A stretch of 32,000 nt of DNA from NCBI GenBank assembly GCA_028279805.1, contig JANQMZ010000007.1, positions 60,001-92,000 on the forward strand, given 5' to 3'. A model generated the notes under the pieces. That model was not told the origin of the DNA, did no database searches, and saw only the letters and a program-made list of their open reading frames with translations. The stretch comes from an archaeon. GTDB taxonomy: Archaea; Iainarchaeota; Iainarchaeia; Iainarchaeales; JANQMZ01. The translations under genes were made by a program, and so were the position numbers. Shown piece after piece: positions 10,971-31,496 of this stretch (position 1 is the stretch's first letter; each line of letters opens with the position of its first letter).

Positions 10971-10974
10971 TTTA

Positions 10975-12645: not shown

Positions 12646-12655
12646 AAATTTCAAC

Positions 12656-15719: not shown

Positions 15720-15733
15720 TTTTTTCCAGCCTT

Positions 15734-16571: not shown

Positions 16572-16593
16572 ACAATTGTTTTGCAATAATTTA

Positions 16594-17187: not shown

Positions 17188-18278
17188 TTCCTATTGCAAA
17201 CCCTTCCTTGGGTTCAGAAGAAGAAAATGCTATAAAAAATGTTTTAAATTCAAATATTTTGGCACAGGGAAAACAAGTTCAGGAATTTGAAAAAAATTTT
17301 GCAGATTTTATAGGAACAAAACATGCAATTGCAACATCATCCGGAACAACCGCGTTACATGTTGCTCTTCTTGCAACCGGAATAAAAAAAAATGACGAAG
17401 TTATTACAACTCCTTTCAGTTTTATTGCTTCATCAAATTCAATTGTTTATTGCAATGCGAAACCCGTTTTTGCGGATATTGATGAAAACACGTTTAACAT
17501 TAATGCGGATTTAATTGAAGAAAAAATTTCAAACAAAACAAAGGCTATTATGCCTGTTCACTTGTTCGGGCAGCCTGCGGAAATGAAAAAAATAATGCAG
17601 ATTGCTGAAAAACATAACCTTACAGTTATTGAAGATGCGTGCCAGTCTCATGGCTCAGAATTTGATGGCAAAAAAACAGGTTCTTTTGACACTGGCTGTT
17701 TTAGTTTTTATCCAACAAAAAACATGACAACATCTGAAGGCGGAATCATTACAACCGATTCTGATAAAATTAATGATTTGTCCAGACTGTTAAGAGAGCA
17801 TGGTTCAAGAAAAAAATATTATAACGAAATTTTGGGATACAATTTCAGAATGACTAATATTGCAGCTGCAATAGGATTGGAACAGTTAAAAAAGCTTGAG
17901 AATTTTAATGAAAAAAGGCAGAAAAATGCTGAATATCTTTCAAAAGGCCTGAAAGACATTCCCGGCCTGATTGTTCCTGAAACAGCTTCAAACAGAACAC
18001 ATGTTTTTCACCAGTATACTGTGAGAATAACAAATGAGGCAAAAATGTCAAGGAACAGTTTTTCAGAAAAACTTAATGAAAATCAGATAGGCAATTCTGT
18101 TTTTTATCCTGTTCCTTTATACAAACAAAGCGTTTACAAAAATTTTGGTTTTGAAAATATTGAACTTCCCGTAACTGAAAAAATCTGCAACGAAGTAATA
18201 AGTTTGCCGGTTCATCCGATGCTTTCACAAAAAGATTTGGATACAATTATTTCGGTTGTTTCAAAAATTTTAGGTTAA
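17184..18278 (+). CDS. DegT/DnrJ/EryC1/StrS-family PLP aminotransferase, WbpE-like
   Basis: 364-aa ORF. Motifs [38 protein letters not shown] (PLP Lys) and HQYTVRI are present. AAGGTGA Shine-Dalgarno sequence, and an ATGA overlap with the upstream gene. Confidence 0.9.
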
Positions 18279-18289
18279 GTGTTTTTCAA

Positions 18290-19261
18290 ATGGTTTTAAA
18301 TGCAGCTGTTGTTGGCGTTGGAAACATGGGAAAAAACCATGCCCGTGTTTACTCCGATTTAAAAGAAACAAAGCTTGTTGCCGTATGTGATAAAAACAAA
18401 AATGCGAAAAAAATTGCCGCGCAATATAAGGCTGAATATTTTTTAGATTTTGAAAAAATGATTCAAAATGAAAATATTGACCTGGTTTCGGTTGCGGTTC
18501 CCACTTTTAAACATAAAGATGTTGTTCTGCCTTTTTTAAAACAAAAAATTCCCGTGCTTCTGGAAAAACCTCTTGCTTTAAATTTAAAAGAAGCCAAAAC
18601 AATTATTTCAAAAGCGAAAAAATACAAAACAAAGTTAATGATCGGGCATATTGAAAGATTTAATCCTGCAATTATTGAATTAAAAAAACAATTGCAGAAA
18701 AAAGTTTTGGATGATGTTTATGCAATTGACATTAACAGGAGAAGCCCTTTTCCTAAAACCATTACTGATGTTGGCGTAACAATTGATTTGGCTGTTCATG
18801 ATCTGGATATTATTTTACAGTTAACAAATTCAAAAGTTAAAAAAATTAAAGCTGAAACTCACACATGGTTTCATTCAACTGATGAGGATATTATGCGTGC
18901 TTTAATAAAATTTAAAAACGGAATGATTGCATCTTTGAATATTGACTGGGTCACTCCTACAAAAATGAGAGAAATTAATGTTACCGGCCATAAAGGAATG
19001 CTTAAAGCTGATTATATTACACAGGAATTGACTTTTTATAAAAACAATTATCCTGTTATTGACAAAACTTATTCTGAAATGATTAAAGGAGTTATTGCAG
19101 GCCCTGTAAAAAAAATTAATGTAAAAAAACAGGAACCTTTAAGGAATGAAATTCTTGCAATGGCAGATTTTGTTAAAAAAGGCAAAAATCCTGTAACTGC
19201 AACCGATTCCTTAAAAGCATTAGAACTTGCATTTGACATATTAAAAACAGCCAAAAAATAA
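18290..19261 (+). CDS. Gfo/Idh/MocA-family NAD-dependent sugar oxidoreductase, WbpB-like
   Basis: 323-aa ORF. AVVGVGNMGKNHARVY (Rossmann), LLEKPLALNLKEA (EKP motif) and GHIERFNPA are present. Confidence 0.85.
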   Translation: MVLNAAVVGVGNMGKNHARVYSDLKETKLVAVCDKNKNAKKIAAQYKAEYFLDFEKMIQNENIDLVSVAVPTFKHKDVVLPFLKQKIPVLLEKPLALNLKEAKTIISKAKKYKTKLMIGHIERFNPAIIELKKQLQKKVLDDVYAIDINRRSPFPKTITDVGVTIDLAVHDLDIILQLTNSKVKKIKAETHTWFHSTDEDIMRALIKFKNGMIASLNIDWVTPTKMREINVTGHKGMLKADYITQELTFYKNNYPVIDKTYSEMIKGVIAGPVKKINVKKQEPLRNEILAMADFVKKGKNPVTATDSLKALELAFDILKTAKK

Positions 19262-19476: not shown

Positions 19477-19665
19477 ATGTCAAAAGAAAAAGTAACGATT
19501 TCAATCCCAAAACATCTTTATAATGAAATAAAGAAAGAAATTGAAAATACCGGCTTTTCTTCACCTTCTGAGTGGATTAAATATGTTTTAAGACAGGCTC
19601 TGGCTGGCGCTAAAAAAAGCAATAATGCCATTATTTCTTTTCCATATCTTGGTGAATCGGATTAA
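19477..19665 (+). CDS. Ribbon-helix-helix (CopG/NikR-N-like) DNA-binding protein
   Basis: 62-aa ORF. KVTISIPKHLYNEIKKEIENTGFSSPSEWIKYVLRQAL fits the beta-strand / helix / helix RHH pattern. Confidence 0.7.
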   Translation: MSKEKVTISIPKHLYNEIKKEIENTGFSSPSEWIKYVLRQALAGAKKSNNAIISFPYLGESD

Positions 19666-19678
19666 AACAGGTGTTTAA

Positions 19679-21469
19679 ATGTCTCAAAAAGTTGCGGTTA
19701 TCGGTATTGACGGAGCCAAGCCTGAAACAATTGAAAGACTGATGAAAAAAGGGCTTTTGCCTAATCTGAGCAATTTGAAAGATTCCGGAACATATGGCCA
19801 TTTACAGACAATTCATGCTTCCCAGACTCCTATTGCCTGGTCAAGCATTATGACAGGCCTTGATATCGGCAAACACGGCGTTTATGATTATCTTATCAGA
19901 GACCCAAAATCTATGCAGTTAAAATTTGGAATGAATGATGAAAGATTCACTCCAAAAGGAACAGAATATGTAAATTTAAGAAAAGGAAAACCTGTTTGGG
20001 AAATTTTAGGAGAAAATGAAAAAAAAGGAATCAGTTTGTTTGTTCCGATGGCTTTTCCGGCTAAAAATTTTAACGGTTTTATTGTTGCAGGAATGGGAAT
20101 TCCTGACTTAAGAGGAGCGCAGGGCGTCCCTGCAATTTATTCAAATGAATCTGATTTTGAAGAAAAAGAAGATTTTTATAAATTAAACTTTTCAGATAAC
20201 AAAACAGTTTCAAAAATTTTTGCATCAAAAGATTTAAGCAAAGAATTTGAAATTGAAATTCTTGAAAATAAAATTTCAATAAAAATTGAAAATGTTAATG
20301 AAATAATTTTAAAACAAAATGAATGGAGTGAATGGATTGAAACTTTTTTTGAACAGGATGACAAAAAAATTGAATCTTTTTTCAGATTCAAATTATTAAA
20401 ATTTAGTAATTCTGAAATAAGATTATATTTGTCTCCTGTAATGTATTCGCCAAAGCAAAATTTTATTCCGGTTGTTCAGCCCAAGGAACTAGGAAAAGAA
20501 TTGATTGAAAATGCCGGAATGTTTAAAGCATTAAGTTTTGAATCTGATGTTTATGGCTTAAAGCAAAAAATAATTGATGAAGAAACATGGATTGAGGACA
20601 TGAAATATACTTTTGATAAAAGAATTCAGGTTTCTGATTATTTGTTAAAAAACAAGCCCTGGAATTTTTTCATGGCTGACTATATGCCTGTTGACCGTGT
20701 CCAGCATTTGTTCTGGAGAGCGATTGACAAAAAACATCCTTTGCATGATGAAAGCAAACAATATGAAAATACTATTGATGAAGTTTATGCTTTTACTGAC
20801 CAAAAAATAGGTGAATTGTTAAAAAATTTTACCCAGGATGACCTGGTTTTTGTTGTTTCAGACCATGGTTTTTGCAGTTACAGAAAAAATGTTGAATTGA
20901 ACAAAATTTTAATGGAAAAAGGTTATCTGCATTTAAAGGATGAAAAAAAATCAGAATCTTTGAATGATATTGACTGGTCCAAAACAAAGGCATATGCTTT
21001 GGGTTTTGGGGCGATTTACATCAATTTGCAGGGCAGAGAGCTTTATGGTGTTGTGGAACAAAAAGACTATGATTTAATGCGGGAGCAAATAATTGAAGAT
21101 TTAACAGGTTTTTCTTTTCAAAACGAACTTGTTTTGAAAAATGTGTTAAAAAGAGAAGAAGCTTTTTCCGGAGGCTCACTTGAAGAATCACCTGACCTGG
21201 TTCCCTTGTATGCTGACGGTTTCCGTTCAGGCTCGGATTCAACTTTGGGCAAAGTTTCGTCAAAAGAAATTGTTCATGATAATTTAAGCAAATGGTCTGC
21301 TGACCATGTGGGCCCGTTTGATTTTTCTGACAATTTCGGAATTATTTTCTCTAACCAGCAGATTAATGTTTCAAATGCAAGTGTTTTTGACATTGCAGTT
21401 TCTTCACTGGATTTTTTTAATCTGAAAAAAGAAAATGAAATGGTGGGAAAATCTTTGCTTTTGAGGTGA
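19679..21469 (+). CDS. Alkaline-phosphatase-superfamily protein, type I phosphodiesterase/nucleotide pyrophosphatase-like (AlkP1)
   Basis: 596-aa ORF. VAVIGIDGAKPETIERLMKKGLLPNL sits at the extreme N-terminus, so there is no signal peptide. Nucleophile region SQTPIAWSSIMTG. Motifs DRVQHLFW and VVSDHGF. AGGTG Shine-Dalgarno sequence. Confidence 0.8.
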   Translation: MSQKVAVIGIDGAKPETIERLMKKGLLPNLSNLKDSGTYGHLQTIHASQTPIAWSSIMTGLDIGKHGVYDYLIRDPKSMQLKFGMNDERFTPKGTEYVNLRKGKPVWEILGENEKKGISLFVPMAFPAKNFNGFIVAGMGIPDLRGAQGVPAIYSNESDFEEKEDFYKLNFSDNKTVSKIFASKDLSKEFEIEILENKISIKIENVNEIILKQNEWSEWIETFFEQDDKKIESFFRFKLLKFSNSEIRLYLSPVMYSPKQNFIPVVQPKELGKELIENAGMFKALSFESDVYGLKQKIIDEETWIEDMKYTFDKRIQVSDYLLKNKPWNFFMADYMPVDRVQHLFWRAIDKKHPLHDESKQYENTIDEVYAFTDQKIGELLKNFTQDDLVFVVSDHGFCSYRKNVELNKILMEKGYLHLKDEKKSESLNDIDWSKTKAYALGFGAIYINLQGRELYGVVEQKDYDLMREQIIEDLTGFSFQNELVLKNVLKREEAFSGGSLEESPDLVPLYADGFRSGSDSTLGKVSSKEIVHDNLSKWSADHVGPFDFSDNFGIIFSNQQINVSNASVFDIAVSSLDFFNLKKENEMVGKSLLLR

Positions 21470-21473
21470 ACAA

Positions 21474-21593
21474 ATGGTTAAAAAAAATTTAAAAAACAAA
21501 AATAAAAAAAATTCAAAAACAAAAAAGAAAAACAATAAAGAAAAAGCTAATGACATTGTTGAAAGGAGATTAAAAGCATTTGGCTATATTTAG
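21474..21593 (+). CDS. 39-aa Lys/Asn-rich micro-protein ending RLKAFGYI (not in the supplied ORF track)
   Basis: ATG at 21474 lies 4 nt after GAGGTGA (21463-21469), which also contains the AlkP1 stop. Translation: MVKKNLKNKNKKNSKTKKKNNKEKANDIVERRLKAFGYI. Its TAG stop overlaps the AGGAGGT Shine-Dalgarno sequence of the next gene. Its C-terminus matches the C-termini of the proteins at 28441-30042 and 30129-31496. Confidence 0.55.
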   Translation: MVKKNLKNKNKKNSKTKKKNNKEKANDIVERRLKAFGYI

Positions 21594-21607
21594 GAGGTTG
21601 ATAAAAA

Positions 21608-22678
21608 ATGCATTTTTATGAGTCAACAATAATTGTTTCAAAAGACGGTTTGCAGGTGAAAAGTTATGCAAACGAACACCCGGAGGGATATGTTATTGCA
21701 AAACCAAAATATATTCCCACAACAAAAATCAAATCCGAGGAATTGCCTTTAAGGCCTTTGCTTGGAGAAGAAGTTAACCGGTTTGATTACTGGATCAGTG
21801 ATGAAGGGTTAAAAGACTATGTTTCAAAATTTAAAGAAACATATCCTGAATATTATTATGAATCCGATTTGTATAACACCTGGTTTTTTGTTATTCCAAA
21901 AAACCGGATAAAGGATGCTCCGGACGGGCGAGCTGGTGTTAAAAAAATTGTTAACATGGGTGAAGATGAAATGGATGAATATTTGTCCTTAACCCAGAAA
22001 TTTTTAAACCTGTTACATGATTCCGGTTTGTCGTATGATGATATGGGTGTAACCAATTCCACTTTACTGGGAACTTATACTTACGGGCGTTCGGACATTG
22101 ACATGATAATTTACGGAAAACAAAATTACTGGGACATAATGGAATACATGAAAGATGCAAAACACGAGCTTTTAAGATGGAGAAATCTGGATGAATGGAA
22201 AAAATATTATGCCACTTACAATGCAGGCTTAAATTTTAATGAAAAAGAATTCATCTGGCAGGCCCAAAGAAAGACAGCTGACGGCTTATTTGACAAAACA
22301 GTGTTTTCCATTTTTGGAGTTGAAGAACCCGGAGAACAATATGTCAAATGGGGGGAAGAAAAATGCACGCCTCTTGGCCTGGCTACAATTGAAGGTGTTG
22401 TGGAAAACAATTTCCATGCAGCTGTAAGGCCCGGTTATTATGAATTAAAAAATTCAAAAGTTATTGACGGCCCGAACCAAAAAGTTGACCTGGTTGTGAC
22501 ATATGCAAGAGATTTTATGTTACAGGCTTTTAATGGTGAAACAATTCAGGCACGAGGATTGCTTGAAAAAGTTGAATCTTTAAACGGAAAAAAAGATGAT
22601 TATTACAGGCTGGCCATTGGCTACTTTGATTCTTATCTGACAAGAAAAGGAGAAGAATTCATAAAAGTAAAACATTAG
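21608..22678 (+). CDS. Predicted Pol-beta-superfamily nucleotidyltransferase (archaeal COG1665-like), function unknown
   Basis: 356-aa ORF with a strong AGGAGGT Shine-Dalgarno sequence (21592-21598). The NTase signature is LLGTYTYGRSDIDMIIYG (G[ST]...D-x-D). The N-terminal block STIIVSKDGLQVKSYANEHPEGYVIAKPKYIP resembles, from memory only, the archaeal 'predicted nucleotidyltransferase' family. Confidence 0.5.
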   Translation: MHFYESTIIVSKDGLQVKSYANEHPEGYVIAKPKYIPTTKIKSEELPLRPLLGEEVNRFDYWISDEGLKDYVSKFKETYPEYYYESDLYNTWFFVIPKNRIKDAPDGRAGVKKIVNMGEDEMDEYLSLTQKFLNLLHDSGLSYDDMGVTNSTLLGTYTYGRSDIDMIIYGKQNYWDIMEYMKDAKHELLRWRNLDEWKKYYATYNAGLNFNEKEFIWQAQRKTADGLFDKTVFSIFGVEEPGEQYVKWGEEKCTPLGLATIEGVVENNFHAAVRPGYYELKNSKVIDGPNQKVDLVVTYARDFMLQAFNGETIQARGLLEKVESLNGKKDDYYRLAIGYFDSYLTRKGEEFIKVKH

Positions 22679-22686
22679 GTAAAAAC

Positions 22687-24060
22687 ATGGCAAAAGAAAA
22701 AAATGTTTTTGAATGGTATCTGGACACAATAAAAAAATCAAATTTTATTGATTTGACTTTGACGCCCGGATTAAATGTGTACATGCAAAACTCCTACAAA
22801 ATATGGGAAATAATAAAAGAACATTTGAATGAAGAATTGTCTTTTCTTGGTTTTGAAAATGTTTACTTTCCCATGTTCATTCCTTTAAACCTTTTCAAAA
22901 AACAAAAACATCATTTCAGGGTTTTTGAAAGCGAGTTAACCCATGTAAAAACTCCCAAGTCAAAAAATAAAACAATTCCATTAGTTGTTCGGCCCACATC
23001 AGAAGCAATAATGTATGATTCTTTTTCAAACTGGATTGAATCACATCATGATCTGCCTTTGCTTGTAAACCAGTTTTGTTCAGTTGTCCGCTGGGAAACA
23101 AGAAAAGACAATGTTCCCTTAATCAGAGGAAACGAATTTTTATGGCAGGAAAGCCATTCTGTTCATTCAAACCAAAAAGAAACAGAGTGGTTTGTTAAAA
23201 AATTGTTAAACGTTTATGATGATCTGATTCAAGGTTACCTGGCTTTGCCTACAATTAAGGGCCTAAAACCGGGGCATAGAAAATTTCCCGGAGCTGTTTA
23301 CACGCTTGCACTGGAATCTTTAATGCCTGACGGGAAGGCAATTCAAATGGCAACATCTCATTATTTAGGCAAAAATTTTTCAAAACCCCAAAAAGTCAGT
23401 TTTAAGGACAAAAAAGGCAGAAAAGAGCAGGCTTTTCAGGCTTCAAACGGCTGCACCACCCGCCTGATTGGAGCAATGTTAATGTTTCATGGTGATGACA
23501 AAGGTTTTGTTCTGCCTCCCAAAGTTGCAGACAGGCAGATTGTTTTTGTGCAAAAACCTCCTCAAAATTTAATTCAGTCTTTGATTACAAAAGGAATAAG
23601 GGCAAAATTTGATGCACGAAAAAATTTATCAGTAAAGGAAAAAATTGATGATGCTGTTTTAAACGGAGTTCCCTTAATTGTTTCCTTAAAAAAAGGAAAA
23701 TTAAAAGTTTTAATTCGTGACAAGCTTTCTGAAGAAATTGTTTCAAAAAATAATTTTGCTTTTTTTGCAAAAGGACAGCTTACTTTAATGCAGAAAAGAT
23801 TGTTTTCAAAAGCTTCAGATTTTTTAAAAAAACACACTTTTAATGTTAAAGATAAGGAAAAATTTGAAAATATTTTGTCAAACAACAAAGGACTTGCTCT
23901 GGCAAACTGGTGCGCTACAAAAAGTTGTGCTAAAAATATTAAAAATAAAACATCTGGTTCTTTAAGAATTGTTAAAAAAGAATTCAAAAACAAAAAACAA
24001 AAATGTATTTATTGCAGCAAGCCGGCAAAATTTCAGGCTTATTTTTCTGAAGCTTATTAA
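22687..24060 (+). CDS. proS: Prolyl-tRNA synthetase, archaeal/eukaryotic-type (class IIa)
   Basis: 457-aa ORF. VRPTSEAIMY, NEFLWQESHS and GCTTRLIGAMLMFHGDDKGFVLPP are present. The C-terminal Cys-containing domain (CIYCSKPAKFQAYFSEAY) ends in the invariant terminal Tyr. Confidence 0.9.
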   Translation: MAKEKNVFEWYLDTIKKSNFIDLTLTPGLNVYMQNSYKIWEIIKEHLNEELSFLGFENVYFPMFIPLNLFKKQKHHFRVFESELTHVKTPKSKNKTIPLVVRPTSEAIMYDSFSNWIESHHDLPLLVNQFCSVVRWETRKDNVPLIRGNEFLWQESHSVHSNQKETEWFVKKLLNVYDDLIQGYLALPTIKGLKPGHRKFPGAVYTLALESLMPDGKAIQMATSHYLGKNFSKPQKVSFKDKKGRKEQAFQASNGCTTRLIGAMLMFHGDDKGFVLPPKVADRQIVFVQKPPQNLIQSLITKGIRAKFDARKNLSVKEKIDDAVLNGVPLIVSLKKGKLKVLIRDKLSEEIVSKNNFAFFAKGQLTLMQKRLFSKASDFLKKHTFNVKDKEKFENILSNNKGLALANWCATKSCAKNIKNKTSGSLRIVKKEFKNKKQKCIYCSKPAKFQAYFSEAY

Positions 24061-24070
24061 GGTGTTTTTT

Positions 24071-25477
24071 ATGGCAAGAATTTTTGTTTTGGGTTTGGAT
24101 GGTGCGGCACCGGAACTTGTTTTTAAAAAATGGAGAAAACATTTGCCTAACATTTCAGAATTAATGCAGCAAGGCTCTTATTGCACAACCGATTCAACAA
24201 TTCCTCCGTCAACAATTATTGCATGGAATTCTTTTTGTTCCGGTTATGATGCGGGACAGCTTGGAGTATATGCTTATACCAAGCGGGGTAAAAAAAGCCT
24301 GGATGATAAAATTTTTGTCAATTCAACTCATGTTAAAAAACCGTTAATCTGGGATGTTTTGTCAAAAAAGGGCAAAAAATGCAACGTAATACATGTTCCT
24401 TTGACTTATCCTGTGCGCAAAATTAATGGCAGAATGGTTTCAGGTTTTTTGACTCCCGGACTTGAATTTGAATCAGTTTATCCAAAATCTTTTAAAAAAG
24501 AAATTAAAAAAATTTCAAAAAATTACATGTTTGATGTTGGGGAATTTTTGTCCTATAAAAGCATGAATCCGAAAAAACTTTTGGAAAAAGTTTATCAGAT
24601 GACTGAAATGAATTTCAAATTAATAAAAAAACTTGTGTTAAAAAAAGACTGGGATTTTTTTATGTCGGTAATCATCGGCACTGACAGGCTTAATCATTTA
24701 TTTTGGCATTATTTTGACCAGAAACATGTTTTATTCAAAAAAGGCTCCCGTTATAAAAATGCTTTAAGGGATTATTTCAAATTTGTTGATAAAAACCTTG
24801 GAAAAATAAGAAAAATTTTGCCAAAAGACACTGTTCTGGTTGTTGCATCTGACCATGGAATGGACCGAATGGATGCAAAAATAAATGTAAATGACTGGTT
24901 AATAAAAAAAGGTTATCTTGTTTTAAAAAAAGATTTTGCTCAGAAAGCAAAAAAAGGCCCGGTTAAAATAAAACTTTCAGGAATAGATTTTTCAAAAACA
25001 AAAGCTTACAGTATAGGAAGTTATCAGGCAAGAATTTATATTAATCTGAAAGGAAGGGATAACGAGGGAGTTGTTTTAAAAAAAGATTTTAATAAAATAC
25101 GCAGAGAACTTGAAGAAAAACTGTCAAAAATAAGGGGAATAAAGGGCCAAAAACTTAATACAAAGTTTTTCAAACCTGAACAAGTGTATAAAAAATTTGA
25201 TTCTGAAGCTCCTGATTTGATTGTTTATTTTGACAATCTTATTTATGGTTCCAATGATGAAGTGGGAAACAGGTCATTATATTCAATGGAAACAGTTGTG
25301 GGAAAAACAATGGCCGGACATGCTCCCAAAGGCATTTTTGTAATTCATGGCCCAAATATCAAAAAAAGGGGTTTTATTGGTGAAAAAAATATTTTAAACG
25401 TGGCTCCGACGTTTTATAAAATTTTAAAAATTAAAAAGCCTAAAGGCTTGCAGGCAAAAAATTTGGATATTTTTTAA
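24071..25477 (+). CDS. Alkaline-phosphatase-superfamily protein, type I phosphodiesterase/nucleotide pyrophosphatase-like (AlkP2)
   Basis: The track start at 23969 runs through the proS 3' end. The ATG at 24071 is preceded by AAGGTG and gives MARIFVLGLDGAAPELV. Nucleophile region PPSTIIAWNSFCSG. Motifs DRLNHLFW and VASDHGM. Confidence 0.8.
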   Translation: MARIFVLGLDGAAPELVFKKWRKHLPNISELMQQGSYCTTDSTIPPSTIIAWNSFCSGYDAGQLGVYAYTKRGKKSLDDKIFVNSTHVKKPLIWDVLSKKGKKCNVIHVPLTYPVRKINGRMVSGFLTPGLEFESVYPKSFKKEIKKISKNYMFDVGEFLSYKSMNPKKLLEKVYQMTEMNFKLIKKLVLKKDWDFFMSVIIGTDRLNHLFWHYFDQKHVLFKKGSRYKNALRDYFKFVDKNLGKIRKILPKDTVLVVASDHGMDRMDAKINVNDWLIKKGYLVLKKDFAQKAKKGPVKIKLSGIDFSKTKAYSIGSYQARIYINLKGRDNEGVVLKKDFNKIRRELEEKLSKIRGIKGQKLNTKFFKPEQVYKKFDSEAPDLIVYFDNLIYGSNDEVGNRSLYSMETVVGKTMAGHAPKGIFVIHGPNIKKRGFIGEKNILNVAPTFYKILKIKKPKGLQAKNLDIF

Positions 25478-27138
25478 TTGGACATTTTGTAAACTTTTAT
25501 TCCGTTTTCTTGAAACAAAATCTGTTCATTTAACTCAGAACAATTTGTTAGAAAATAGTCAGCATCTTTTTGTGAATATTTTAACACTTCTTTGCCTTTA
25601 TTGTCAAATATTTTTCTCTGCCCGTTTTCATATTTGAAATTAGCAGCCCATGAGAACTGAAAAATTTTTGGAAACTGTATTAATCTGCTCCTGTTTTCTC
25701 CAGAATCAGGTACGTCAAAAAAAGAATTGTATGGAAAGGGTTGATAGTCATATTTTGGAAGTTTTGTAAAGCATTCATCTATTCCTAAAACAAATTCTCC
25801 CGGTAATGAATTTATTTTTTCGCCAATTGAATAAAAGCCAACCGGAAAAGTTGGCTGATTTTTTATTACAGGCGTATAACCTGTAAAGTAAATAAAATGC
25901 CAGAATAACAATCCGAAAACAAGCAATGTTGCAATTGTTTTAACCGGTTTTTTCATTGTGTTTATTTTTTCAGAAATTTGTGTAAAACCAATTGCAGCGA
26001 TTATTGAAAGGGGAACAATTGCGAGGTAAAAATATTTTACGGACATGTAAAGCTGATGAATCTGAACTGGAAAATTGTTTGTAAACATGTTTAAAAAGAA
26101 TCGTGCGAACACTGAGAAAATCATCAAGGCAAATGCTCCGAAAAATAATAATAATTTTGAATTGTTTTCCTGTTTTTTGTTTTTAAAAATGTAAATTATT
26201 CCGGGGATTGCAAGAAGAAAAACGGCAAGTGAAAAAGGGTTTGGCGTAAAAATGCCTCCTCTTATTAATCCTCCTTCCGCTATATAAGTTGCATAATGAA
26301 TTGCTAATCCGAAAACCTGCGGAATAACGCTTAAAAGAGCTAAAAATGGCAGTATAAAAATTTTGAAATTTTTTTGTTTTAAAAAATTGAATGCTAAAAA
26401 AATTGTGAAAATCAGAAAAGCGTGAGGGTAAGCTGTTAATCCTATTAGTGATAAAAAGTATGGTTTTTTTTCTTTTGTTGAATAAAAATAAAAACCGCTT
26501 ATTAAAAAAAGCATTGTGAAAACCTGTGGTAAATGCCCTGCAAGTAAAACCCATAGGCTTGTAATTGTAAACGCAAAAATGAATGAACTGATTATTGCTG
26601 TTTTTTCATTGTAAAATTTTTTTGCAAACAAAAAAACTCCTATTGTTGTAAAAATGAGCAAAAGAATTGGCAAAATAGTATTAATCATGTAAGCGTTTCC
26701 GATTATTGAATGAATTGAGGATGTTGTTGCATAATAATTCTGAGGATAACTGTGATCCAGATTAAAAGGAAAACTTTCTTCTGCTGATAAAAAACCATTT
26801 TCTTCTGTTACAATATTGTGATTTGCAGATGTTAATCTTGTGTGTTTAGAATGGTTCATTAAATCTGAAGCGGTTACCGGAAAAATAAAATTTGGAAAAA
26901 TAACATACAAAAAAAGCAGAACAAATACTCCTATTATTAATGCAAAAATTGTTTGTGTTTTTGGTGTAATTGTTTCTTTTTTTGTTTTTTTTAATATAAA
27001 TCCTGTGATTATTCCTGAAATCAAAATATTTGCAACAGTAGTATAAGAATAAATCATTCCCAGATATCCCAGCCATAATGCTATCAGTGAAAATATTGCC
27101 AGAAATGACACAAATCCTGTGAACACTTTTTTTATCAT
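25474..27138 (-). CDS. Polytopic membrane protein with a C-terminal soluble domain; possible GT-C-like glycosyltransferase or glycan polymerase
   Basis: 554-aa ORF. There are at least 10 hydrophobic spans over residues 1-420, followed by a roughly 130-aa hydrophilic tail. I see no WWDxG (AglB/STT3) motif. It is translationally coupled (ATGA) to the Wzx-like gene. Confidence 0.35.
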   Translation of the reverse strand: MIKKVFTGFVSFLAIFSLIALWLGYLGMIYSYTTVANILISGIITGFILKKTKKETITPKTQTIFALIIGVFVLLFLYVIFPNFIFPVTASDLMNHSKHTRLTSANHNIVTEENGFLSAEESFPFNLDHSYPQNYYATTSSIHSIIGNAYMINTILPILLLIFTTIGVFLFAKKFYNEKTAIISSFIFAFTITSLWVLLAGHLPQVFTMLFLISGFYFYSTKEKKPYFLSLIGLTAYPHAFLIFTIFLAFNFLKQKNFKIFILPFLALLSVIPQVFGLAIHYATYIAEGGLIRGGIFTPNPFSLAVFLLAIPGIIYIFKNKKQENNSKLLLFFGAFALMIFSVFARFFLNMFTNNFPVQIHQLYMSVKYFYLAIVPLSIIAAIGFTQISEKINTMKKPVKTIATLLVFGLLFWHFIYFTGYTPVIKNQPTFPVGFYSIGEKINSLPGEFVLGIDECFTKLPKYDYQPFPYNSFFDVPDSGENRSRLIQFPKIFQFSWAANFKYENGQRKIFDNKGKEVLKYSQKDADYFLTNCSELNEQILFQENGIKVYKMSN

Positions 27139-28436
27139 TTTATCTTCCTAATAACAAGTTTTTTTGCATTGTCATAAAAAAATATTATGTCTTTTAATCT
27201 TGGAATTATTTGGACCGGCGCATCTATTTTATTTGCTTTATGCAGGAAAAATGCAAATCTTGCTGAAGCTGCGAGTGTTTGTGTTATAATGTAACCGTTT
27301 AACCCGAGCATTGGCACTAAAATTATTCCTGTAAAAGCTGTTGTTCCAAGCGTTATTCCGAATCCTTTTGAAATCACATCAGTCATTTTAAAAGATTTAA
27401 ACATGGTTGTCATAAACGTGTCAAGTTTTGACAAATGAAACAATATGAATAAGGGAAAAATGCTTGCAGCATCAGTAAACTGCGGAAACAAAACTGTAAG
27501 AAGAGTGTGTCCTATTATAACCAGAAAAATTCCTACTCCTATTGTATAAATTGTTGAAAATTTTATGCTTAGGGAAACAAAGTTTGCCATTGATTGTTTT
27601 TCAGTGTCTCTTTCAGAAATATATGGAATTAAAACATTTGAAAGAGATTCTCTTGTTCCGCCGATTGCATGTGTGAAAAGCTTTTCTGTTAAATAATAAA
27701 GCCCTATTGCAAAATTTCCTACAAACATTCCCAAATAAACAAGCCTTAACTGCCTGTTTAATGCTTTAAATAAATTTGTTGGTATCAGCCATGAACCGAA
27801 TTTTTTAACCTGCTCCATTGAAATTTTTTGCCCTTTTTGTTTTTCTTTAGAGTAAAAAAATGTTAGCAGAATAAATCCTGTTATTGAAAAAATATTTGCA
27901 TATATTACTCCGGCCATTCCCACCTGAAACTGGATAACAAGAAGGTATGCTATTCCAAGATTTAAAATATTTTCAAATGACAACGCTTTCAGTATTTTTC
28001 CGAATTTTTTTAAACCGCTTAAAAAAGCACGATAACTCTGGTAAAGCGGGGTTAATATAACCAAAACTGCCGCAGTTCTGAACAAATCCAGTCCTTCTTT
28101 TCCTATAAAAGTTAAAATGTTTTCAGCAAAAACAAATAATACAACAAAAAGAAGAATTGCCAGAATCATTTCATATTTTAATATTTGGTTTAAAAATTTT
28201 TTCGATTTTGCTTTTGGTGTGTAAAATTCTATTATGTCAAAAAAAACAGGCAACCCAATTAATGGCAATAATCCTGTAACAAATGCAATAAAATATAAAA
28301 CTAATCCGTAATCGCTTGGCCCTAAAGCGTTTGCTATCAGGTAAACAAAAACAATTCCGGATAATGTTAAAACTATTTTTGAACCGTATAAATAAAAAAA
28401 GTTTTTTATAAATTCCCCGATTGTTTTTCCGCTCAT
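27135..28436 (-). CDS. Wzx/RfbX-like MOP-superfamily polysaccharide flippase
   Basis: 433-aa ORF. The N-terminus IKNFFYLYGSKIVLTLSGIVFVYLIANALGPSDYGLV is typical of Wzx-type proteins. About 12 hydrophobic spans. Confidence 0.7.
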   Translation of the reverse strand: MSGKTIGEFIKNFFYLYGSKIVLTLSGIVFVYLIANALGPSDYGLVLYFIAFVTGLLPLIGLPVFFDIIEFYTPKAKSKKFLNQILKYEMILAILLFVVLFVFAENILTFIGKEGLDLFRTAAVLVILTPLYQSYRAFLSGLKKFGKILKALSFENILNLGIAYLLVIQFQVGMAGVIYANIFSITGFILLTFFYSKEKQKGQKISMEQVKKFGSWLIPTNLFKALNRQLRLVYLGMFVGNFAIGLYYLTEKLFTHAIGGTRESLSNVLIPYISERDTEKQSMANFVSLSIKFSTIYTIGVGIFLVIIGHTLLTVLFPQFTDAASIFPLFILFHLSKLDTFMTTMFKSFKMTDVISKGFGITLGTTAFTGIILVPMLGLNGYIITQTLAASARFAFFLHKANKIDAPVQIIPRLKDIIFFYDNAKKLVIRKIK

Positions 28437-28440
28437 TTTT

Positions 28441-30042
28441 TTACCCCAGATAACCCAAGCCTTTTAACCTGTTCTGAAGAGCTTCCTGTTGTTTTTGTGA
28501 TAAATCAATTTCTTTTTTTTCTTTTAATTTGTAGTCTTTTGTTTCAATTTTTTGTTTTTTAAACTCATCTTCAAATGCTTCTGAAATAATCTGTCCGTCC
28601 ATGTTTTTTTCAATTTTTAAATTCATTAAAAACAAAATTGTGGGAGCGATGTCCACAAGTTTTTTTCTTTCAAGTTCAATTTCTTTTTTTATTTTTGGTC
28701 CGTGCATTGTAAAAATTCCGACCTGCCTATGATCTCCTGAAGTTGTAACGGATTCTGTTACAATTTTGTTTGTTGTTTCAAAAGCGGATGAAATCATGTC
28801 ACTTTCGTTTGCTGGAACCACATACAAATCGGGAGCATCTTCAAGGCTTTTTCCGGAATAAACTTGTTCTTTTTCAAAAACCGTTTTAATCAGCTTTTCA
28901 CCGGTTTTGGGGTCTTTTAAGCTTAAAAGCTCTTTTTTTAATTTTTTTCTTATCTCGCTGTAATTGTTTTCATTTACCGGCCCTTCTTTGTTTAAAAAAA
29001 GTTGTCCCATGTGCCTCATAAAATATGCCTGTGTGTTTTTCCAGTCAACATTTTCAAATGACAAAAAACTTTGCTGTTTTATTTTTTCTCTTGCCTGTGC
29101 CGGAACTTTTTTTATTAAAAAATCAATTTTGAAAAATTTTAAAATTTTTATAACATTTTCAATTGTAAATCCTTTTTTTCTCATTGCAAGTTTTGCCTGG
29201 TTTTTCATTTTTAAATATCCTTTTTCTATTAACCAGTTGTTTAAATACATTAACCTGTAATTTGCTCCGAAACCATGGTCTGATAAAATAATAACATGGT
29301 CAAATTCGTTTTCATGTTTTTTTATAAAATTTCCCATAAGTTCATCTATTTTTGAATAAAAATTTGGTATAAAATTTTTAAATTCATCATCCTCTTTTGT
29401 ATGATTTGGATGTTTTTCATCATAATGTTTCCAGAAATTATGCTGAAAAGGATCTGTTGAGTGAACCATTACAAAAAAGAAATCCGGTTTGTGTTTTTCA
29501 ATTAATTTTGTTGCATAATCCAAACGTGTTTTTTCAACATTAACCGCTTCTTTAAAAAATTCTTCTTCTTTTCCTTTTTTAAACTGGGAACATTTGATTT
29601 TATATTCTCCCAATTCTTTTTCAAAATCCTGAATTAAATTTTTGGGATAAAATTCTGCTTTTTTGCTGGGAGTCAAAAGGCCTGTTACAACAAAACCGTT
29701 AACCTTTGCAGGCGGGTATGTCAGGGGAACATTCATTATTCCCACTTTTTTTTCTTCCTGACTCAATATTTCCTGTAATGTGATTGACTTTATGTAAGTT
29801 GAGTTTACTTTTTTTTCACCGTCTTTTCTTGAAAAATCAAAAATTCCGTGTTTTCCCGGATTGCATCCTGTTTGAAAAGTTGTCCAAGCAGCACTTGTTA
29901 TTGGCGGAATGCATGATTCCAGTTCACATTTTACCCCTTTTTTGAAAAATTTTTCCATATTTGGCAACAAGCCTTTTTTTATTGCAGGTTTTACAACATC
30001 AAAAGTCCAGGCATCCAGCCCGATAACCATTACTTTTCCCAT
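28441..30042 (-). CDS. Alkaline-phosphatase-superfamily protein, type I phosphodiesterase/nucleotide pyrophosphatase-like (AlkP3), C-terminal RLKGLGYLG tail
   Basis: 533-aa ORF. MGKVMVIGLDAWTF at the N-terminus. Nucleophile region PPITSAAWTTFQTG. Motifs DPFQHNFW and ILSDHGF. A K/E-rich linker precedes ...QNRLKGLGYLG at the C-terminus. Confidence 0.8.
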   Translation of the reverse strand: MGKVMVIGLDAWTFDVVKPAIKKGLLPNMEKFFKKGVKCELESCIPPITSAAWTTFQTGCNPGKHGIFDFSRKDGEKKVNSTYIKSITLQEILSQEEKKVGIMNVPLTYPPAKVNGFVVTGLLTPSKKAEFYPKNLIQDFEKELGEYKIKCSQFKKGKEEEFFKEAVNVEKTRLDYATKLIEKHKPDFFFVMVHSTDPFQHNFWKHYDEKHPNHTKEDDEFKNFIPNFYSKIDELMGNFIKKHENEFDHVIILSDHGFGANYRLMYLNNWLIEKGYLKMKNQAKLAMRKKGFTIENVIKILKFFKIDFLIKKVPAQAREKIKQQSFLSFENVDWKNTQAYFMRHMGQLFLNKEGPVNENNYSEIRKKLKKELLSLKDPKTGEKLIKTVFEKEQVYSGKSLEDAPDLYVVPANESDMISSAFETTNKIVTESVTTSGDHRQVGIFTMHGPKIKKEIELERKKLVDIAPTILFLMNLKIEKNMDGQIISEAFEDEFKKQKIETKDYKLKEKKEIDLSQKQQEALQNRLKGLGYLG

Positions 30043-30128
30043 TTTAACGCCTTTTTTTTATGTTTTTGTATAAATTCTTTGTTTTTTGGTTTAACAATTT
30101 TTGGGTACAACTTTAAACAGGCTTTTTC

Positions 30129-31496
30129 TTAAAGATAACCCATTCCTTTCATCTGTTCTTTTGTTTTATCAGTAATTTCAACTTGTATTTCTTTATCAGG
30201 CAGCTTGTTATTTTTAATCAAATCATTAATCATTTTTTCAAATTCTGCAACTTTTTCAGGTTTTTCAGCTGCAAGATTTTTTAATTCACCCGGATCTTGT
30301 TTTAAATTAAAAAGTTTTACATCTTGTGTTACAGTTTTTGTTAATTTTTTTTCCTTTGACAAATTAAAAAACTGTTTAACATACCCAAAAATGTTTTTTA
30401 TAAACTTTAACGAAAAAACTTTTTTTGCTTCAAAATATTTTTTAATATACTTCCATTCATTTGTTCTCACAGAACGCATTAACTTAAAATGCTGCTGAAA
30501 TTCTGTTATGCCAACCAAGTCAAATTCTTTTTCTCCTCGAATCATCGGCATTAAATTTTTTCCGTGAAATTTTGTTTTTTCTTTTATTTCTGTTAAACTT
30601 AAAACAGTGGGCAGCAAATCAATATGCCTCACCAACGGCTTTATTTTTTTCCCGGCCGGAATCAAACCAGGGCATCTTATTATTATAGGAACTTTTACAA
30701 CCTCATCAAACATATACCATAACCCGTGTCCCAACTGCTTGCTTTCTTCTTTCCTGTCAAATAATATTTCACCATTATCTGATGTGATTATGACAATTGT
30801 GTTGTCAAGCAGATTCATTTTTTTTAATTCTTCAAATAAAATTTTTAATTTTTCATCAGCATCTTTTATTCCCGCATCATATAAATCTTTTAATGCTTCA
30901 ATATCCTCCTTTGAAAACATTCCCTTGCTTGCAAATTCCTTTAATTTCGGAATGTCCGTTGCAGCTGTTTTTCTGTACCTGTTTTTTAAAGTTTTTTTTG
31001 ACAAATATTTTTCAGGCGGATCAAAAGGATAATGAATATCAAAACAGTGAACAAAAGCAAACCATTTTTCATTTTTATGCTGTTTAACCCATTCCAAAAA
31101 CTGTTCTGTTTTAATGTCAAGATTTCTTCCCTCATCATTGTAAACATCAAATCCTCGCTCCCATCCGAAATCTTTAGCCATTATTACTCCGCCAGTAAAA
31201 GCACCTGTTTTGTATCCTGCGTTTTTCATCATTTCAGCCCAGGTTTTATATTTTGGTAAAAGATAAAAATTTTTTTTATCCGCAGTATGCATAAAAGCGT
31301 TTAAACCGGTAAACAAAGCCATATGTGCCGGAGCAGTCCAGTTTCCCTGTGTTATCGCTGTTTCAAACAATGTTCCCTGTGAGGCAATTTTATCAATAAA
31401 AGGAGTTGTTTTTTTATGGTAACCATAACAACCCATATGATTCTGCCTTAAAGAATCAAGCAAAATTACTAACACATTTTTAGCCATTTTTTTCAC
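30129..31496 (-). CDS. Sulfatase-fold (AlkP superfamily) protein lacking the C/S-x-P-x-R signature; probably not a true sulfatase
   Basis: 455-aa ORF from a GTG at 31496. An alternative start is the ATG at 31487 (MAKNVLVILLDSLR). The sulfatase-like core includes ITSDNGE. The signature position reads T-A-P-A-H-MALFTG (31305-31337). The C-terminus is ...KEQMKGMGYL. Confidence 0.75.
   Translation of the reverse strand: MKKMAKNVLVILLDSLRQNHMGCYGYHKKTTPFIDKIASQGTLFETAITQGNWTAPAHMALFTGLNAFMHTADKKNFYLLPKYKTWAEMMKNAGYKTGAFTGGVIMAKDFGWERGFDVYNDEGRNLDIKTEQFLEWVKQHKNEKWFAFVHCFDIHYPFDPPEKYLSKKTLKNRYRKTAATDIPKLKEFASKGMFSKEDIEALKDLYDAGIKDADEKLKILFEELKKMNLLDNTIVIITSDNGEILFDRKEESKQLGHGLWYMFDEVVKVPIIIRCPGLIPAGKKIKPLVRHIDLLPTVLSLTEIKEKTKFHGKNLMPMIRGEKEFDLVGITEFQQHFKLMRSVRTNEWKYIKKYFEAKKVFSLKFIKNIFGYVKQFFNLSKEKKLTKTVTQDVKLFNLKQDPGELKNLAAEKPEKVAEFEKMINDLIKNNKLPDKEIQVEITDKTKEQMKGMGYL

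Follow-up and report, generated by a model that had tools for sequence, protein, structure and literature searches.

Agl30 (VNG1056C) and Agl31 (VNG1057C) are N-glycan sulfotransferases of Halobacterium salinarum (Zaretsky et al., mBio 2025; PMC11980604), and their sulfation of the dolichol-phosphate-linked N-glycan was established by genetics and by transfer into Haloferax (PMC11980604). Agl31 is cytosolic with 6HHM as its best structural match, and donor, nucleophile and mechanism are not addressed in that paper (PMC11980604). Since Agl30 and Agl31 are AP/sulfatase-fold proteins, a precedent for sulfation exists, and the claim in the initial annotation of the DNA studied here, that no described pathway has this composition, is outdated.

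The window, which is the whole 32,000-nucleotide stretch of archaeal DNA analysed, holds four AP-fold genes, P1 to P4; they lie in two tight operons that also encode a Wzx flippase and a membrane protein, probably of GT-C-like type. The features, with positions in the window, are:

19477..19665, plus strand: small ORF of 62 aa, ribbon-helix-helix-like, heading the plus-strand operon; assigned by eye from KVTISIPKHLYNEI
19679..21469, plus strand: P1, 596 aa, leaderless COG3379/PF01663 protein, P1-type, by PF01663 match
21474..21593, plus strand: micro-ORF of 39 aa whose end, ...VERRLKAFGYI, reproduces the C-terminal tail as a free-standing unit
21608..22678, plus strand: Pol-beta-type nucleotidyltransferase-like protein, 356 aa, weak NTP_transf_2 match; candidate sulfate-activating component
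22687..24060, plus strand: archaeal-type prolyl-tRNA synthetase (TIGR00408, tRNA-synt_2b, ProRS-C_1), embedded within the operon
24071..25477, plus strand: P2, 468 aa, leaderless COG3379/PF01663 protein, P2-type, without the tail, by PF01663 match
25474..27138, minus strand: polytopic membrane protein, 554 aa, of a rare family, probably GT-C-like (hydrophobic spans, hhalign)
27135..28436, minus strand: Wzx/MOP-family flippase (Polysacc_synt_3, Polysacc_synt, MOP flippase NCBIfam model)
28441..30042, minus strand: P3, 533 aa, leaderless COG3379/PF01663 protein with a helical insertion and the tail ...NRLKGLGYLG, by PF01663 match
30129..31496, minus strand: P4, 452-455 aa, leaderless sulfatase-fold protein with T-A-P-A-H and the tail ...MKGMGYL, by PF00884 match

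The ORF list places the 62-aa ORF 13 nt ahead of P1. In the minus-strand operon the successive genes are separated by 86 nt and then by 4 nt, and the last two overlap by 4 nt; because of these tight coordinates P4, P3, the flippase and the 554-aa protein are regarded as coupled, as was initially annotated. The P2 ATG at 24071 has the Shine-Dalgarno sequence AAGGTG, which an alternative upstream TTG start lacks, and the micro-ORF has GAGGTGA 4 nt upstream. The prolyl-tRNA synthetase scores 407 bits with TIGR00408, under the curated cut-off of 437 bits.

Profile matches agree with the three PF01663 proteins and the one sulfatase-fold protein of the initial annotation. PF01663 (Pfam) was matched with E-values of 1e-37 by P1 (in two pieces), 3e-39 by P2 and 2e-35 by P3, and P4 matched PF00884 Sulfatase (E = 1e-42) as well as SGSH_C; nothing else in the 876-kb genome matches PF01663 or PF00884. 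Both sets of motifs first quoted, the N-terminal beta1-Asp motifs and the T-x8-[TS]-G strings, can be read in the sequences, and the earlier view that signal peptide and anchor are lacking is consistent with hydrophobicity on the Kyte-Doolittle scale, where 19-residue windows reach at most 1.19 in all four proteins. Lacking a leader is typical of the family, since about 100 of 120 COG3379 homologues have the start of the beta1-Asp motif among their first 12 residues. P1, P2 and P3 are about 30% identical to one another and all keep the nucleophile and metal ligands (D10, T49, D197, H201, D255, H256 and H438 in P3 numbering), P1 having an insertion of roughly 120 aa and no C-terminal tail. More than 3000 homologues of P3 exist, with full-length identity of about 35%, and the AlphaFold model of P3 (pLDDT 88.8) has the NPP fold, with target-normalised TM values of about 0.67-0.69 against ENPP6, Xac NPP and PhnA and of about 0.65-0.69 over the NPPs and PhnA together. 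In P4, T-A-P-A-H occupies the site of the C-x-P-x-R signature, and a T-x-P-x-H motif is found in most of the 120 P4 homologues listed. Asn238 of P4 stands where its relatives have His, and its nearest solved structures by sequence are S1 sulfatases, 6HHM included. In the Thr-type sulfatase subfamily most members have an Asp-His metal pair and some have long N-terminal membrane domains, and many bacterial Thr-type sulfatase relatives carry a signal peptide or a membrane anchor, so that cytoplasmic location does not extend to the whole family; PAPS is out of reach for these exported or anchored relatives. Taken from sequence, these features support the prediction that P1 to P4 are cytoplasmic, catalytically intact AP-superfamily enzymes.

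The neighbouring genes had been annotated as a flippase and a GT-C-like protein. The former assignment stands (Polysacc_synt_3 2.5e-17, Polysacc_synt 1.7e-11, and a MOP flippase NCBIfam model), whereas the signals for the latter are weak: hhalign gave a probability of 91.6% across 85 columns against PMT_2 proteins, and weak PMT_2 matches were found in 4 of 24 family members. The 554-aa protein has about 10-12 hydrophobic spans and belongs to a family with 36 cluster representatives among 1.8 billion, in which D92 in the first loop is invariant; its AlphaFold model was unusable (pLDDT 42). Linkage of P3-type genes to lipid-linked glycan genes is conserved across phyla. At 83 species-representative loci the neighbours, almost always on the same strand, included GT2 (34), UPF0104/LPG_synthase_TM (19), a second COG3379 gene (19), a large GT-C-like protein (at least 10) and Wzx (7). 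The step before flipping suggested in the initial annotation is a reasonable reading.

The explanation we favour, with about even confidence, is that P1 to P4 are cytoplasmic AP-fold transferases which decorate a dolichol-phosphate-linked glycan, most likely with sulfate, before it is flipped by Wzx. The four proteins would add an anionic group to the glycan at the inner membrane face, the group most likely being sulfate from APS or PAPS, after which Wzx would flip the decorated glycan and the GT-C-like protein would use it outside. By analogy with Agl30 and Agl31 of Halobacterium, the AP-fold proteins themselves may perform the sulfuryl transfer. We know of no biochemical demonstration to date that an AP-fold protein uses APS or PAPS, nor of any PF01663-type protein assayed for sulfotransfer.

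Sulfate activation is linked to these genes in related organisms, as shown by 151 related DPANN genomes of the same order or phylum. Of these, 14 have COG3379, and CysD(N), Sat or APS kinase was found in 11 of these 14 but in only 13 of the 137 COG3379-negative genomes (odds ratio 35). The activation genes mostly adjoin AP-fold genes, and in 10 of the 16 genomes with CysD this gene is no more than about 3 kb away from one for a COG3379 protein or a Thr-type sulfatase. Gene orders are P2-PK-Sat-APSK-P1-microORF-P4-Wzx in G054 and microORF-APSK-Sat-PK-P2 in G002, so that P2 orthologues head P2-PK-Sat-APS kinase operons in both. P1 orthologues of 580-626 aa in G054, G049, G039 and G015 adjoin CysD or Sat/APS kinase, the CysD beside the P1-type gene in G015, G039 and G049 being tailed, as is that beside a P3-type gene in G106. 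CysN is additionally present in G015, G039 and G106, and in G030, where CysN is fused to APS kinase and CysD is present too, P1-like and P4-like genes are close by. The counterparts in sulfate-activating G054 are close (P1 863 bits, P2 537 bits, P4 40% identity), and the relatives' CysD (360 bits), CysN (377 bits) and Sat (430 bits) all exceed the NCBIfam cut-offs. Sulfotransfer_1 and Sulfotransfer_3 gave no match in four of the five searched genomes having both COG3379 and sulfate activation, nor in the genome of P1 to P4.

The C-terminal tail "L[KR]xLGY[LIV]" is common to P3, P4 and the micro-ORF beside P1, and outside the AP fold it is found on true APS kinases in Blastocatellia and on CysD in Syntrophorhabdus and DPANN. 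It occurs in 110 of 120 P3 homologues and in 69 of the 120 P4 homologues listed, and of the 8873 ORFs in the genome of P1 to P4 just 3 bear the tail, the micro-ORF being one of them. A Diapherotrites genome has a 52-aa ORF ending ...VKRRLKALGYI after its P1-type gene, and the E. coli CysD end ...KKRQGYF resembles the AP-fold tail. The tail may be a docking peptide uniting the tail-less P1/P2-type proteins, the tailed P3/P4-type proteins and the sulfate-activating enzymes.

Sat, CysD, APS kinase and a pyruvate kinase partner were not found in the genome of P1 to P4, which is 93.7% complete and totals 876 kb with one 853-kb contig, and this is a puzzle if the added group is sulfate. It is the only COG3379-positive genome in the sample at least 90% complete without sulfate-activation genes. 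Because the known sulfate-activating genes are missing here, transfer or cleavage of a phospho group (phosphoglycerol, phosphoethanolamine, sugar-phosphate or similar) on the lipid-linked glycan at the cytoplasmic face remains a rival, although an unlikely one. Phosphoryl transfer is the classical reaction of a Thr nucleophile at a bimetallo site, and P1-P3 have the Thr (or Ser) nucleophile with all NPP-type ligands, P3 in an NPP fold; the Thr-type sulfatases include members whose long N-terminal membrane domains recall LtaS and EptA, and most of the subfamily has the Asp-His pair. The donor could be a membrane phospholipid, used in an LtaS-, EptA- or NPP-like manner and making a dedicated donor-synthesis gene unnecessary, or a nucleotide-activated alcohol. 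However, the phospho-group or teichoic-acid-like chemistry is not supported in the form initially proposed: no cytidylyltransferase or CDP-alcohol donor gene was seen in the window and the relatives' orthologues sit inside CysDN or Sat-APS kinase operons, sharing the tail with those enzymes. Known LtaS/EptA-type enzymes also act outside the membrane by means of a membrane domain absent from P1-P4, and P4 has Asn at the His position like true sulfatases. Sulfuryl transfer is more likely than phosphoryl transfer.

APS kinase is missing from most CysDN-carrying relatives, which therefore need some other partner that consumes APS or PPi. The reaction catalysed by ATP sulfurylase runs strongly uphill and has to be pulled by another enzyme, the NPPs are nucleotide pyrophosphatases, and the operon of P2-type gene, pyruvate kinase, Sat and APS kinase has a donor-making look. 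The PF01663 paralogues might be accessory hydrolases that draw sulfate activation and glycan assembly forward, or clean up after them, by removing pyrophosphate, pAp, AMP, stray APS/PAPS or nucleotide-sugar by-products, while only the Agl31-like P4 or another protein transfers. We consider this improbable too, since three ancient, about 30% identical paralogues are kept in a genome with no sulfate activation to assist, and the linkage of bacterial P3-type genes is with GT2, flippase-like and GT-C genes and not with nucleotide metabolism. Furthermore, no Thr-type sulfatase was matched in the COG3379-carrying genomes G031, G039 and G106, so that on this view they would have no transferase candidate. 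That the AP-fold genes are decaying remnants, non-functional after loss of sulfate activation, would fit this exceptional genome but is very improbable, as the four ORFs are intact, P1-P3 have every catalytic residue, the genes follow one another closely in operons and have Shine-Dalgarno sites, and a 0.88 Mb genome is unlikely to retain 6 kb of dead genes.

If P1 to P4 are sulfate transferases, the donor may be supplied here by a host or by the nucleotidyltransferase-like gene of the operon (NTP_transf_2, E = 0.058). Homologues of this gene in G031, G076 and G041 form tandem pairs with HIT-like and PHP phosphatase-like proteins, and in G031 and G076, both without Sat and CysD, APS kinase adjoins the pair. 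Bacterial data speak against sulfate: at P3-type loci sulfate-activation genes lie within 10 kb in only 3 of 80, and the Thr-type sulfatase relatives with signal peptides or anchors are cut off from PAPS.

Among the known systems, CysD-CysN(-CysC), Sat-CysC and NodPQ activate sulfate and feed sulfotransferases, and in the relatives such genes are encoded beside AP-fold genes; here, in contrast, no canonical sulfotransferase follows, APS kinase is mostly absent from CysDN-carriers, and the genome of P1 to P4 has none of these genes. The NPPs (Xac NPP, ENPP1-7) and PhnA share with P3 the fold, the Thr nucleophile and six metal ligands, and with P1-P3 a PF01663 match above threshold, but sequence identity is 10-15% and P2 had no PDB match by phmmer. 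P1-P3 differ from them in being leaderless and cytoplasmic with extra helical insertions, P3 having the C-terminal tail as well, and in a context of glycan assembly and sulfate activation instead of nucleotide or phosphonate catabolism. P4 resembles formylglycine (S1) sulfatases in PF00884, SGSH_C, the Asp-Asn metal pair and matches to dozens of solved structures (E down to 3e-23), yet it has no signal peptide, lies in a biosynthetic context and, because T-A-P-A-H replaces C/S-x-P-x-R, cannot form formylglycine. LtaS, EptA/MCR-1, OpgB and BcsG share the sulfatase fold and Thr nucleophile with P4 and are transferases decorating envelope polymers, but they have an N-terminal multi-span domain, are extracytoplasmic and use phospholipid donors, whereas P4 is soluble and leaderless and scores far under their NCBIfam cut-offs. 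Agl30 and Agl31 differ from P1-P3 in Pfam family (PF01663, COG3379, where no sulfotransferase has been demonstrated), and the C-terminal tail, micro-ORF and CysD link are not described for them; unlike their system, the genome of P1 to P4 is without sulfate activation. Like P4, they are sulfatase-fold AP-superfamily proteins whose genes belong to a glycosylation cluster of an archaeon; Agl31 is a soluble protein of the cytosol, the location predicted for P4 too, and 6HHM, the best structural match of Agl31, is also among the PDB sequence matches of P4, a likeness that consists in this shared match. Agl30 and Agl31 modify the dolichol-phosphate-linked glycan before export, the same stage as is proposed for P1 to P4.

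Four proteins of the alkaline-phosphatase fold (AP-fold), designated P1 to P4, are encoded in the window within two operons:

19477-19665, plus strand: RHH-like ORF, heading the plus-strand operon
19679-21469, plus strand: P1, 596 aa, PF01663 (E = 1e-37)
21474-21593, plus strand: 39-aa micro-ORF, between P1 and the nucleotidyltransferase-like gene
21608-22678, plus strand: 356-aa Pol-beta-type nucleotidyltransferase-like protein, between P1 and proS
22687-24060, plus strand: archaeal-type prolyl-tRNA synthetase (proS), inside the same operon
24071-25477, plus strand: P2, 468 aa, PF01663 (E = 3e-39)
25474-27138, minus strand: 554-aa polytopic membrane protein of a rare family, GT-C-like candidate
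27135-28436, minus strand: Wzx/MOP flippase, Polysacc_synt_3 (63.5 bits, cut-off 23), multiple hydrophobic spans
28441-30042, minus strand: P3, 533 aa, PF01663 (E = 2e-35)
30129-31496, minus strand: P4, 455 aa, Sulfatase PF00884 (1e-42), plus SGSH_C

P1, P2 and P3 score 131, 136 and 123.5 bits against PF01663, the type I phosphodiesterase / nucleotide pyrophosphatase (NPP) family (gathering cut-off 23), and P4 scores 146.9 bits against PF00884 (cut-off 25). The four reading frames are present as the initial annotation described them. A profile search found these four to be the only members of the two families in the own genome, the assembly holding the window (876 kb, 93.7% complete, archaeal 16S rRNA 1395 bits), whose features agree with an archaeon of DPANN type. 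The plus-strand operon runs from the RHH-like ORF through P1, the micro-ORF, the nucleotidyltransferase-like gene and ProRS to P2 with gaps of 4-14 nt, proS itself being flanked by gaps of 8-10 nt. On the minus strand P4, P3, Wzx and the 554-aa membrane protein follow each other; the first two junctions are gaps of 86 and 4 nt, and the last two genes overlap by 4 nt.

When P1 to P3 were aligned with 17 homologues, D10, T49, D197, H201, D255, H256 and H438 (P3 numbering) were kept in all three, and through motif alignment we take these residues to be equivalent to the nucleophile and metal ligands of NPP. By this sequence comparison T49 of P3 is the putative nucleophile and the six Asp/His residues are the ligands of a predicted bimetallo site; among 120 COG3379 homologues, 95 have T and 16 have S at the nucleophile position. 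The evidence for an NPP-like fold comes from the AlphaFold model of P3 (pLDDT 88.8, pTM 0.90), which matches ENPP6 (Foldseek E = 3e-19, target-normalised TM 0.69) and also ENPP1/3/5/7, Xac NPP and PhnA (target-normalised TM approximately 0.65-0.69). A phmmer search of PDB sequences with P2 gave no match. For P4 the nearest solved structures by sequence are S1 sulfatases. It carries T-A-P-A-H at the position of the formylglycine-yielding S1 signature C/S-x-P-x-R, with T51 aligned to the formylglycine position, and T-x-P-x-H is found in most of its 120 homologues listed. Residue 238 of P4, in the second metal pair, is Asn (S-D-N-G), where His (S-D-H-G) stands in at least 90% of the aligned relatives. 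Ca/Mg-dependent true sulfatases (arylsulfatase A, PAS) use the metal pair Asp-Asn.

All four proteins are leaderless, as had been claimed: they have no hydrophobic segment, the highest 19-residue Kyte-Doolittle average being at most 1.19 (1.12 for P4), and the beta1-Asp motif starts within the first 5-10 residues. The catalytic core of P4 begins at residue 5-8, and a hydrophobicity scan found no N-terminal multi-span membrane domain in this protein. The early beta1-Asp start is shared by approximately 100 of 120 P3 homologues, and in P2 the ATG start is preceded by a Shine-Dalgarno sequence and the longer TTG start is not. Generic phosphate scavenging by P1 to P4 was ruled out because the proteins are leaderless.

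One large glycan-biosynthesis island takes up the window, whose G+C content is approximately 30%; it encodes GT4, GT2, epimerases/dehydratases, a WbpB/E/D-like trio, a FemAB-like protein and a UPF0104/LPG_synthase_TM protein. The trio is for a 2,3-diacetamido sugar, and the UPF0104 protein belongs to a family recurring beside COG3379 genes in bacteria; it lies with the trio, the FemAB-like protein, two large proteins (495 and 573 aa) without Pfam matches and a divergent member of the DegT-like group at 9987-16432 (minus strand) and 16576-19261 (plus strand). The Wzx identity is secure, the protein being polytopic and above the Polysacc_synt_3 cut-off. The family of the 554-aa protein has 36 representatives among 1.8 billion, and its members sit in glycan loci. 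A Pfam search with the protein itself gave no match, the family profile found nothing in the PDB and the AlphaFold model, built with 3 sequences, was unusable (pLDDT 42). Weak PMT_2 matches in 4/24 family members, 91.6% hhalign probability over 85 columns against PMT_2 proteins and an invariant D92 in the first loop suggest a possible relationship with GT-C (PMT_2/ArnT-like) glycosyltransferases.

P3 belongs to COG3379, named by JGI as 'predicted AlkP superfamily phosphohydrolase/phosphomutase', and has more than 3000 matches at approximately 35% identity across the full length, from Anaerolineae, Blastocatellia, Omnitrophota, Desulfobacterota and several archaeal groups. Within four genes of the P3-type gene in 83 species-representative loci, and nearly always on the same strand, the neighbours were GT2 with C-terminal membrane spans (34 loci), UPF0104/LPG_synthase_TM proteins (19), a second COG3379 gene (19), PTPS_related/YfhO-like giant membrane proteins (10), GT4 (10) and Wzx (7). 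Annotated example loci gave the same picture. The linkage to glycan genes is accordingly real, and the survey contradicts the scattering of homologues that would speak against it.

A link to sulfate activation was found in relatives. The closest P4 homologue (40% identity) is from Diapherotrites, and its locus reads P2-type, pyruvate kinase, ATP sulfurylase, APS kinase, P1-type, 52-aa micro-ORF, P4-type and Wzx, where the types denote orthologues of the window's proteins. Among 151 genomes of the same order or phylum as the own genome, COG3379 was present in 14, Thr-type sulfatase in 21, CysD in 16, APS kinase in 10 and Sat in 3. A sulfate-activating gene occurred in 11 of the 14 COG3379 genomes versus 13 of the 137 others (odds ratio 35, Fisher's p 4e-8, which overstates the association since related genomes are not independent), corresponding to 11/13 when the own genome is set aside. 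In 10 of the 16 CysD-positive genomes no more than approximately 3 kb separated CysD from an AP-fold gene, and all eight relatives' loci retrieved had CysD (mostly with CysN), CysNC, Sat-APSK or APS kinase within approximately 10 kb of COG3379. The relatives' CysD, CysN, Sat, pyruvate kinase and APS kinase were above NCBIfam curated cut-offs, and APS kinase was absent from most CysDN carriers. A genome-wide search for Sulfotransfer_1 and Sulfotransfer_3 in five such relatives gave no match in four. These tiny genomes accordingly activate sulfate beside AP-fold genes, and no candidate other than the AP-fold proteins was seen to use it. In two DPANN genomes the P2-type gene and that for ATP sulfurylase are separated by a gene for a pyruvate kinase barrel lacking the C-terminal domain (TIGR01064, 333 bits; L004:15271-16347 and L090:7088-8185), which may regenerate ATP for sulfate activation.

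A C-terminal tail, L[KR]xLGY[LIV], occurs among both the AP-fold and the sulfate-activating proteins. P3 ends in ...NRLKGLGYLG, P4 in ...MKGMGYL and the 39-aa micro-ORF in ...RRLKAFGYI, and among 8873 ORFs of the own genome these three alone have the ending. It was found in 110/120 COG3379 homologues and 69/120 Thr-type sulfatase homologues. P1-type and P2-type proteins lack it, and in relatives they lie beside a micro-ORF or a CysD that carries it. The 39-aa micro-ORF has its own strong Shine-Dalgarno, a polybasic N-terminus and a stand-alone copy of the tail; its 52-aa counterpart follows the P1-type gene in the Diapherotrites genome. A sequencing frameshift was ruled out as its origin by this Shine-Dalgarno and by the similar micro-ORF behind the P1-type gene of another genome. 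More tail micro-ORFs, of 55-84 aa, were seen in G002, G054, G106 and G147 of the sample and in one Syntrophorhabdus locus. In the form L[KR]xLGY[LMV] the tail also ends true APS kinases (two Blastocatellia genomes) and CysD (Syntrophorhabdus, several DPANN):

L043:208-825, tailed APS kinase or CysD
L056:61-1023, tailed APS kinase or CysD
L058:14581-15384, tailed APS kinase or CysD
L094:7526-8356, tailed APS kinase or CysD
L096:11682-12482, tailed APS kinase or CysD
L097:10054-10863, tailed APS kinase or CysD
L104:5422-6330, tailed APS kinase or CysD

On a Syntrophorhabdus-like contig (L089:5040-9981) tailed CysD-CysN comes directly after the genes of a PstS-type ABC transporter and of a PF01663 protein of 424 aa; an ORF of 72 aa (4822-5040) lies immediately upstream of this stretch. 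The motif resembles the native C-terminus of CysD, since E. coli CysD ends in ...MELKKRQGYF, and the tail may be derived from, or mimic, that element. We infer from these endings that it is a predicted docking peptide assembling AP-fold and sulfate-activating enzymes; the shared tail and the stand-alone micro-protein together suggest a docking system.

The own genome is the informative exception, having the full AP-fold set without known sulfate activation. Searches of it for Sat, CysD, APS kinase and the pyruvate kinase partner, and for a canonical sulfotransferase, found none; weak APS_kinase and PAPS_reduct matches (31 and 33 bits) were rejected as true CysC/CysD because real CysD, Sat and APS kinase found nothing when used as tblastn queries. 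Of the COG3379-positive genomes in the 151-genome sample that are at least 90% complete, no other is without sulfate activation. G054 has PK-Sat-APSK between P2 and P1; the corresponding place in the own genome is taken by proS and the 356-aa nucleotidyltransferase-like gene. Only four other sampled genomes had homologues of this nucleotidyltransferase-like gene. In G031 and G076 a tandem nucleotidyltransferase-like pair is followed by an approximately 210-aa HIT-like protein and a PHP protein resembling 3',5'-bisphosphate nucleotidase (pAp-phosphatase-like), with APS kinase adjacent and no Sat/CysD. G041 has the same pair with HIT-like and PHP-like proteins, but CysD is present and no APS kinase was seen, and the G147 homologue is separated from a P4-type gene by 2.5 kb. 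The tandem sets are located at:

L093:2908-5087, tandem nucleotidyltransferase-like/HIT-like/PHP locus
L098:6108-9792, tandem nucleotidyltransferase-like/HIT-like/PHP locus
L100:480-4194, tandem nucleotidyltransferase-like/HIT-like/PHP locus

Their gene content fits a candidate non-orthologous ATP sulfurylase within a replacement sulfate-activating system. The own genome has the single nucleotidyltransferase-like gene and a search for the HIT-like and PHP partners found neither. The exception implies a new sulfate-activating enzyme, a host-supplied donor or a family not restricted to sulfate.

The best reading, to which we give roughly even chances, is that P1 to P4 form a cytoplasmic AP-fold module that would sulfate a lipid-linked glycan, with flipping by Wzx coming after. 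The initial annotation had proposed phospho-group or phosphodiester decoration of such a glycan before flipping; the conserved glycan linkage bears this interpretation out in part, but phospho-transfer is placed below sulfate and appears unlikely. That the PF01663 paralogues act as accessory nucleotide hydrolases is likewise improbable. Sulfation by the AP-fold module can be extended to a joint proposal, put forward with considerable doubt: COG3379 and the Thr-type sulfatase-like proteins would make up a large class, so far unrecognised, of sulfotransferases that work in the cytoplasm through a Thr/Ser nucleophile, using APS directly without APS kinase in many lineages, their CysD-like 'LGY' docking tail binding the activating enzymes, also in trans via the micro-protein, and the Pol-beta-type protein replacing ATP sulfurylase here. 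Chloroflexota, Acidobacteriota, Omnitrophota, Desulfobacterota and many archaea contribute thousands of members to COG3379, for which the literature search found no paper assigning a function; it likewise yielded nothing of relevance on archaeal alkaline phosphatase family proteins together with Wzx. If true, sulfation of lipid-linked glycans by these proteins would explain sulfated envelopes in many organisms without canonical sulfotransferases and raise the mechanistic question of how a scaffold for phosphoryl transfer would carry out sulfuryl transfer, with APS instead of PAPS as the possible donor.

Among known systems, P4 is like the S1 sulfatases in its sulfatase-domain profile match and unlike them in missing the formylglycine signature. 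With LtaS/EptA-type transferases it shares a Thr nucleophile within a sulfatase-fold domain, but these enzymes have a membrane domain and an extracytoplasmic catalytic domain whereas P4 has no membrane segment, and its NCBIfam scores are 34 bits for LtaS (cut-off 970), 20.6 for EptA (561) and 32 for CptA (900). The nearest precedent described is that of Halobacterium salinarum, in which the membrane-associated Agl30 (VNG1056C) and the cytosolic Agl31 (VNG1057C), annotated as AP-domain proteins and structurally sulfatase-like, are both needed for sulfation of the DolP-linked N-glycan and sulfate the glycan of Haloferax when moved into that host (Zaretsky et al., mBio 2025; PMC11980604). Their donor, nucleophile and mechanism are not discussed in that paper (PMC11980604), and for Haloferax Agl7 (HVO_2046), needed for DolP-hexose sulfation, the literature found does not state the protein family. 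The initial view that no described pathway has this composition therefore holds for the PF01663 type, for which none was found, but not for the sulfatase-fold type (PMC11980604). An activated sulfate source was searched for in the own genome and not found (no Sat, CysD or APS kinase). By published description P4, and possibly also P1 to P3, can be likened to Agl30/Agl31; P4 resembles them in its AP-superfamily sulfatase-like fold and its archaeal glycosylation cluster, and the one point shared with Agl31 is 6HHM, the best structural match of Agl31 (PMC11980604) and among the PDB sequence matches of P4. If P1 to P4 do sulfate a lipid-linked glycan, the Agl30/31 discovery, made in one haloarchaeon, would come to include bacteria and a second AP-fold family.
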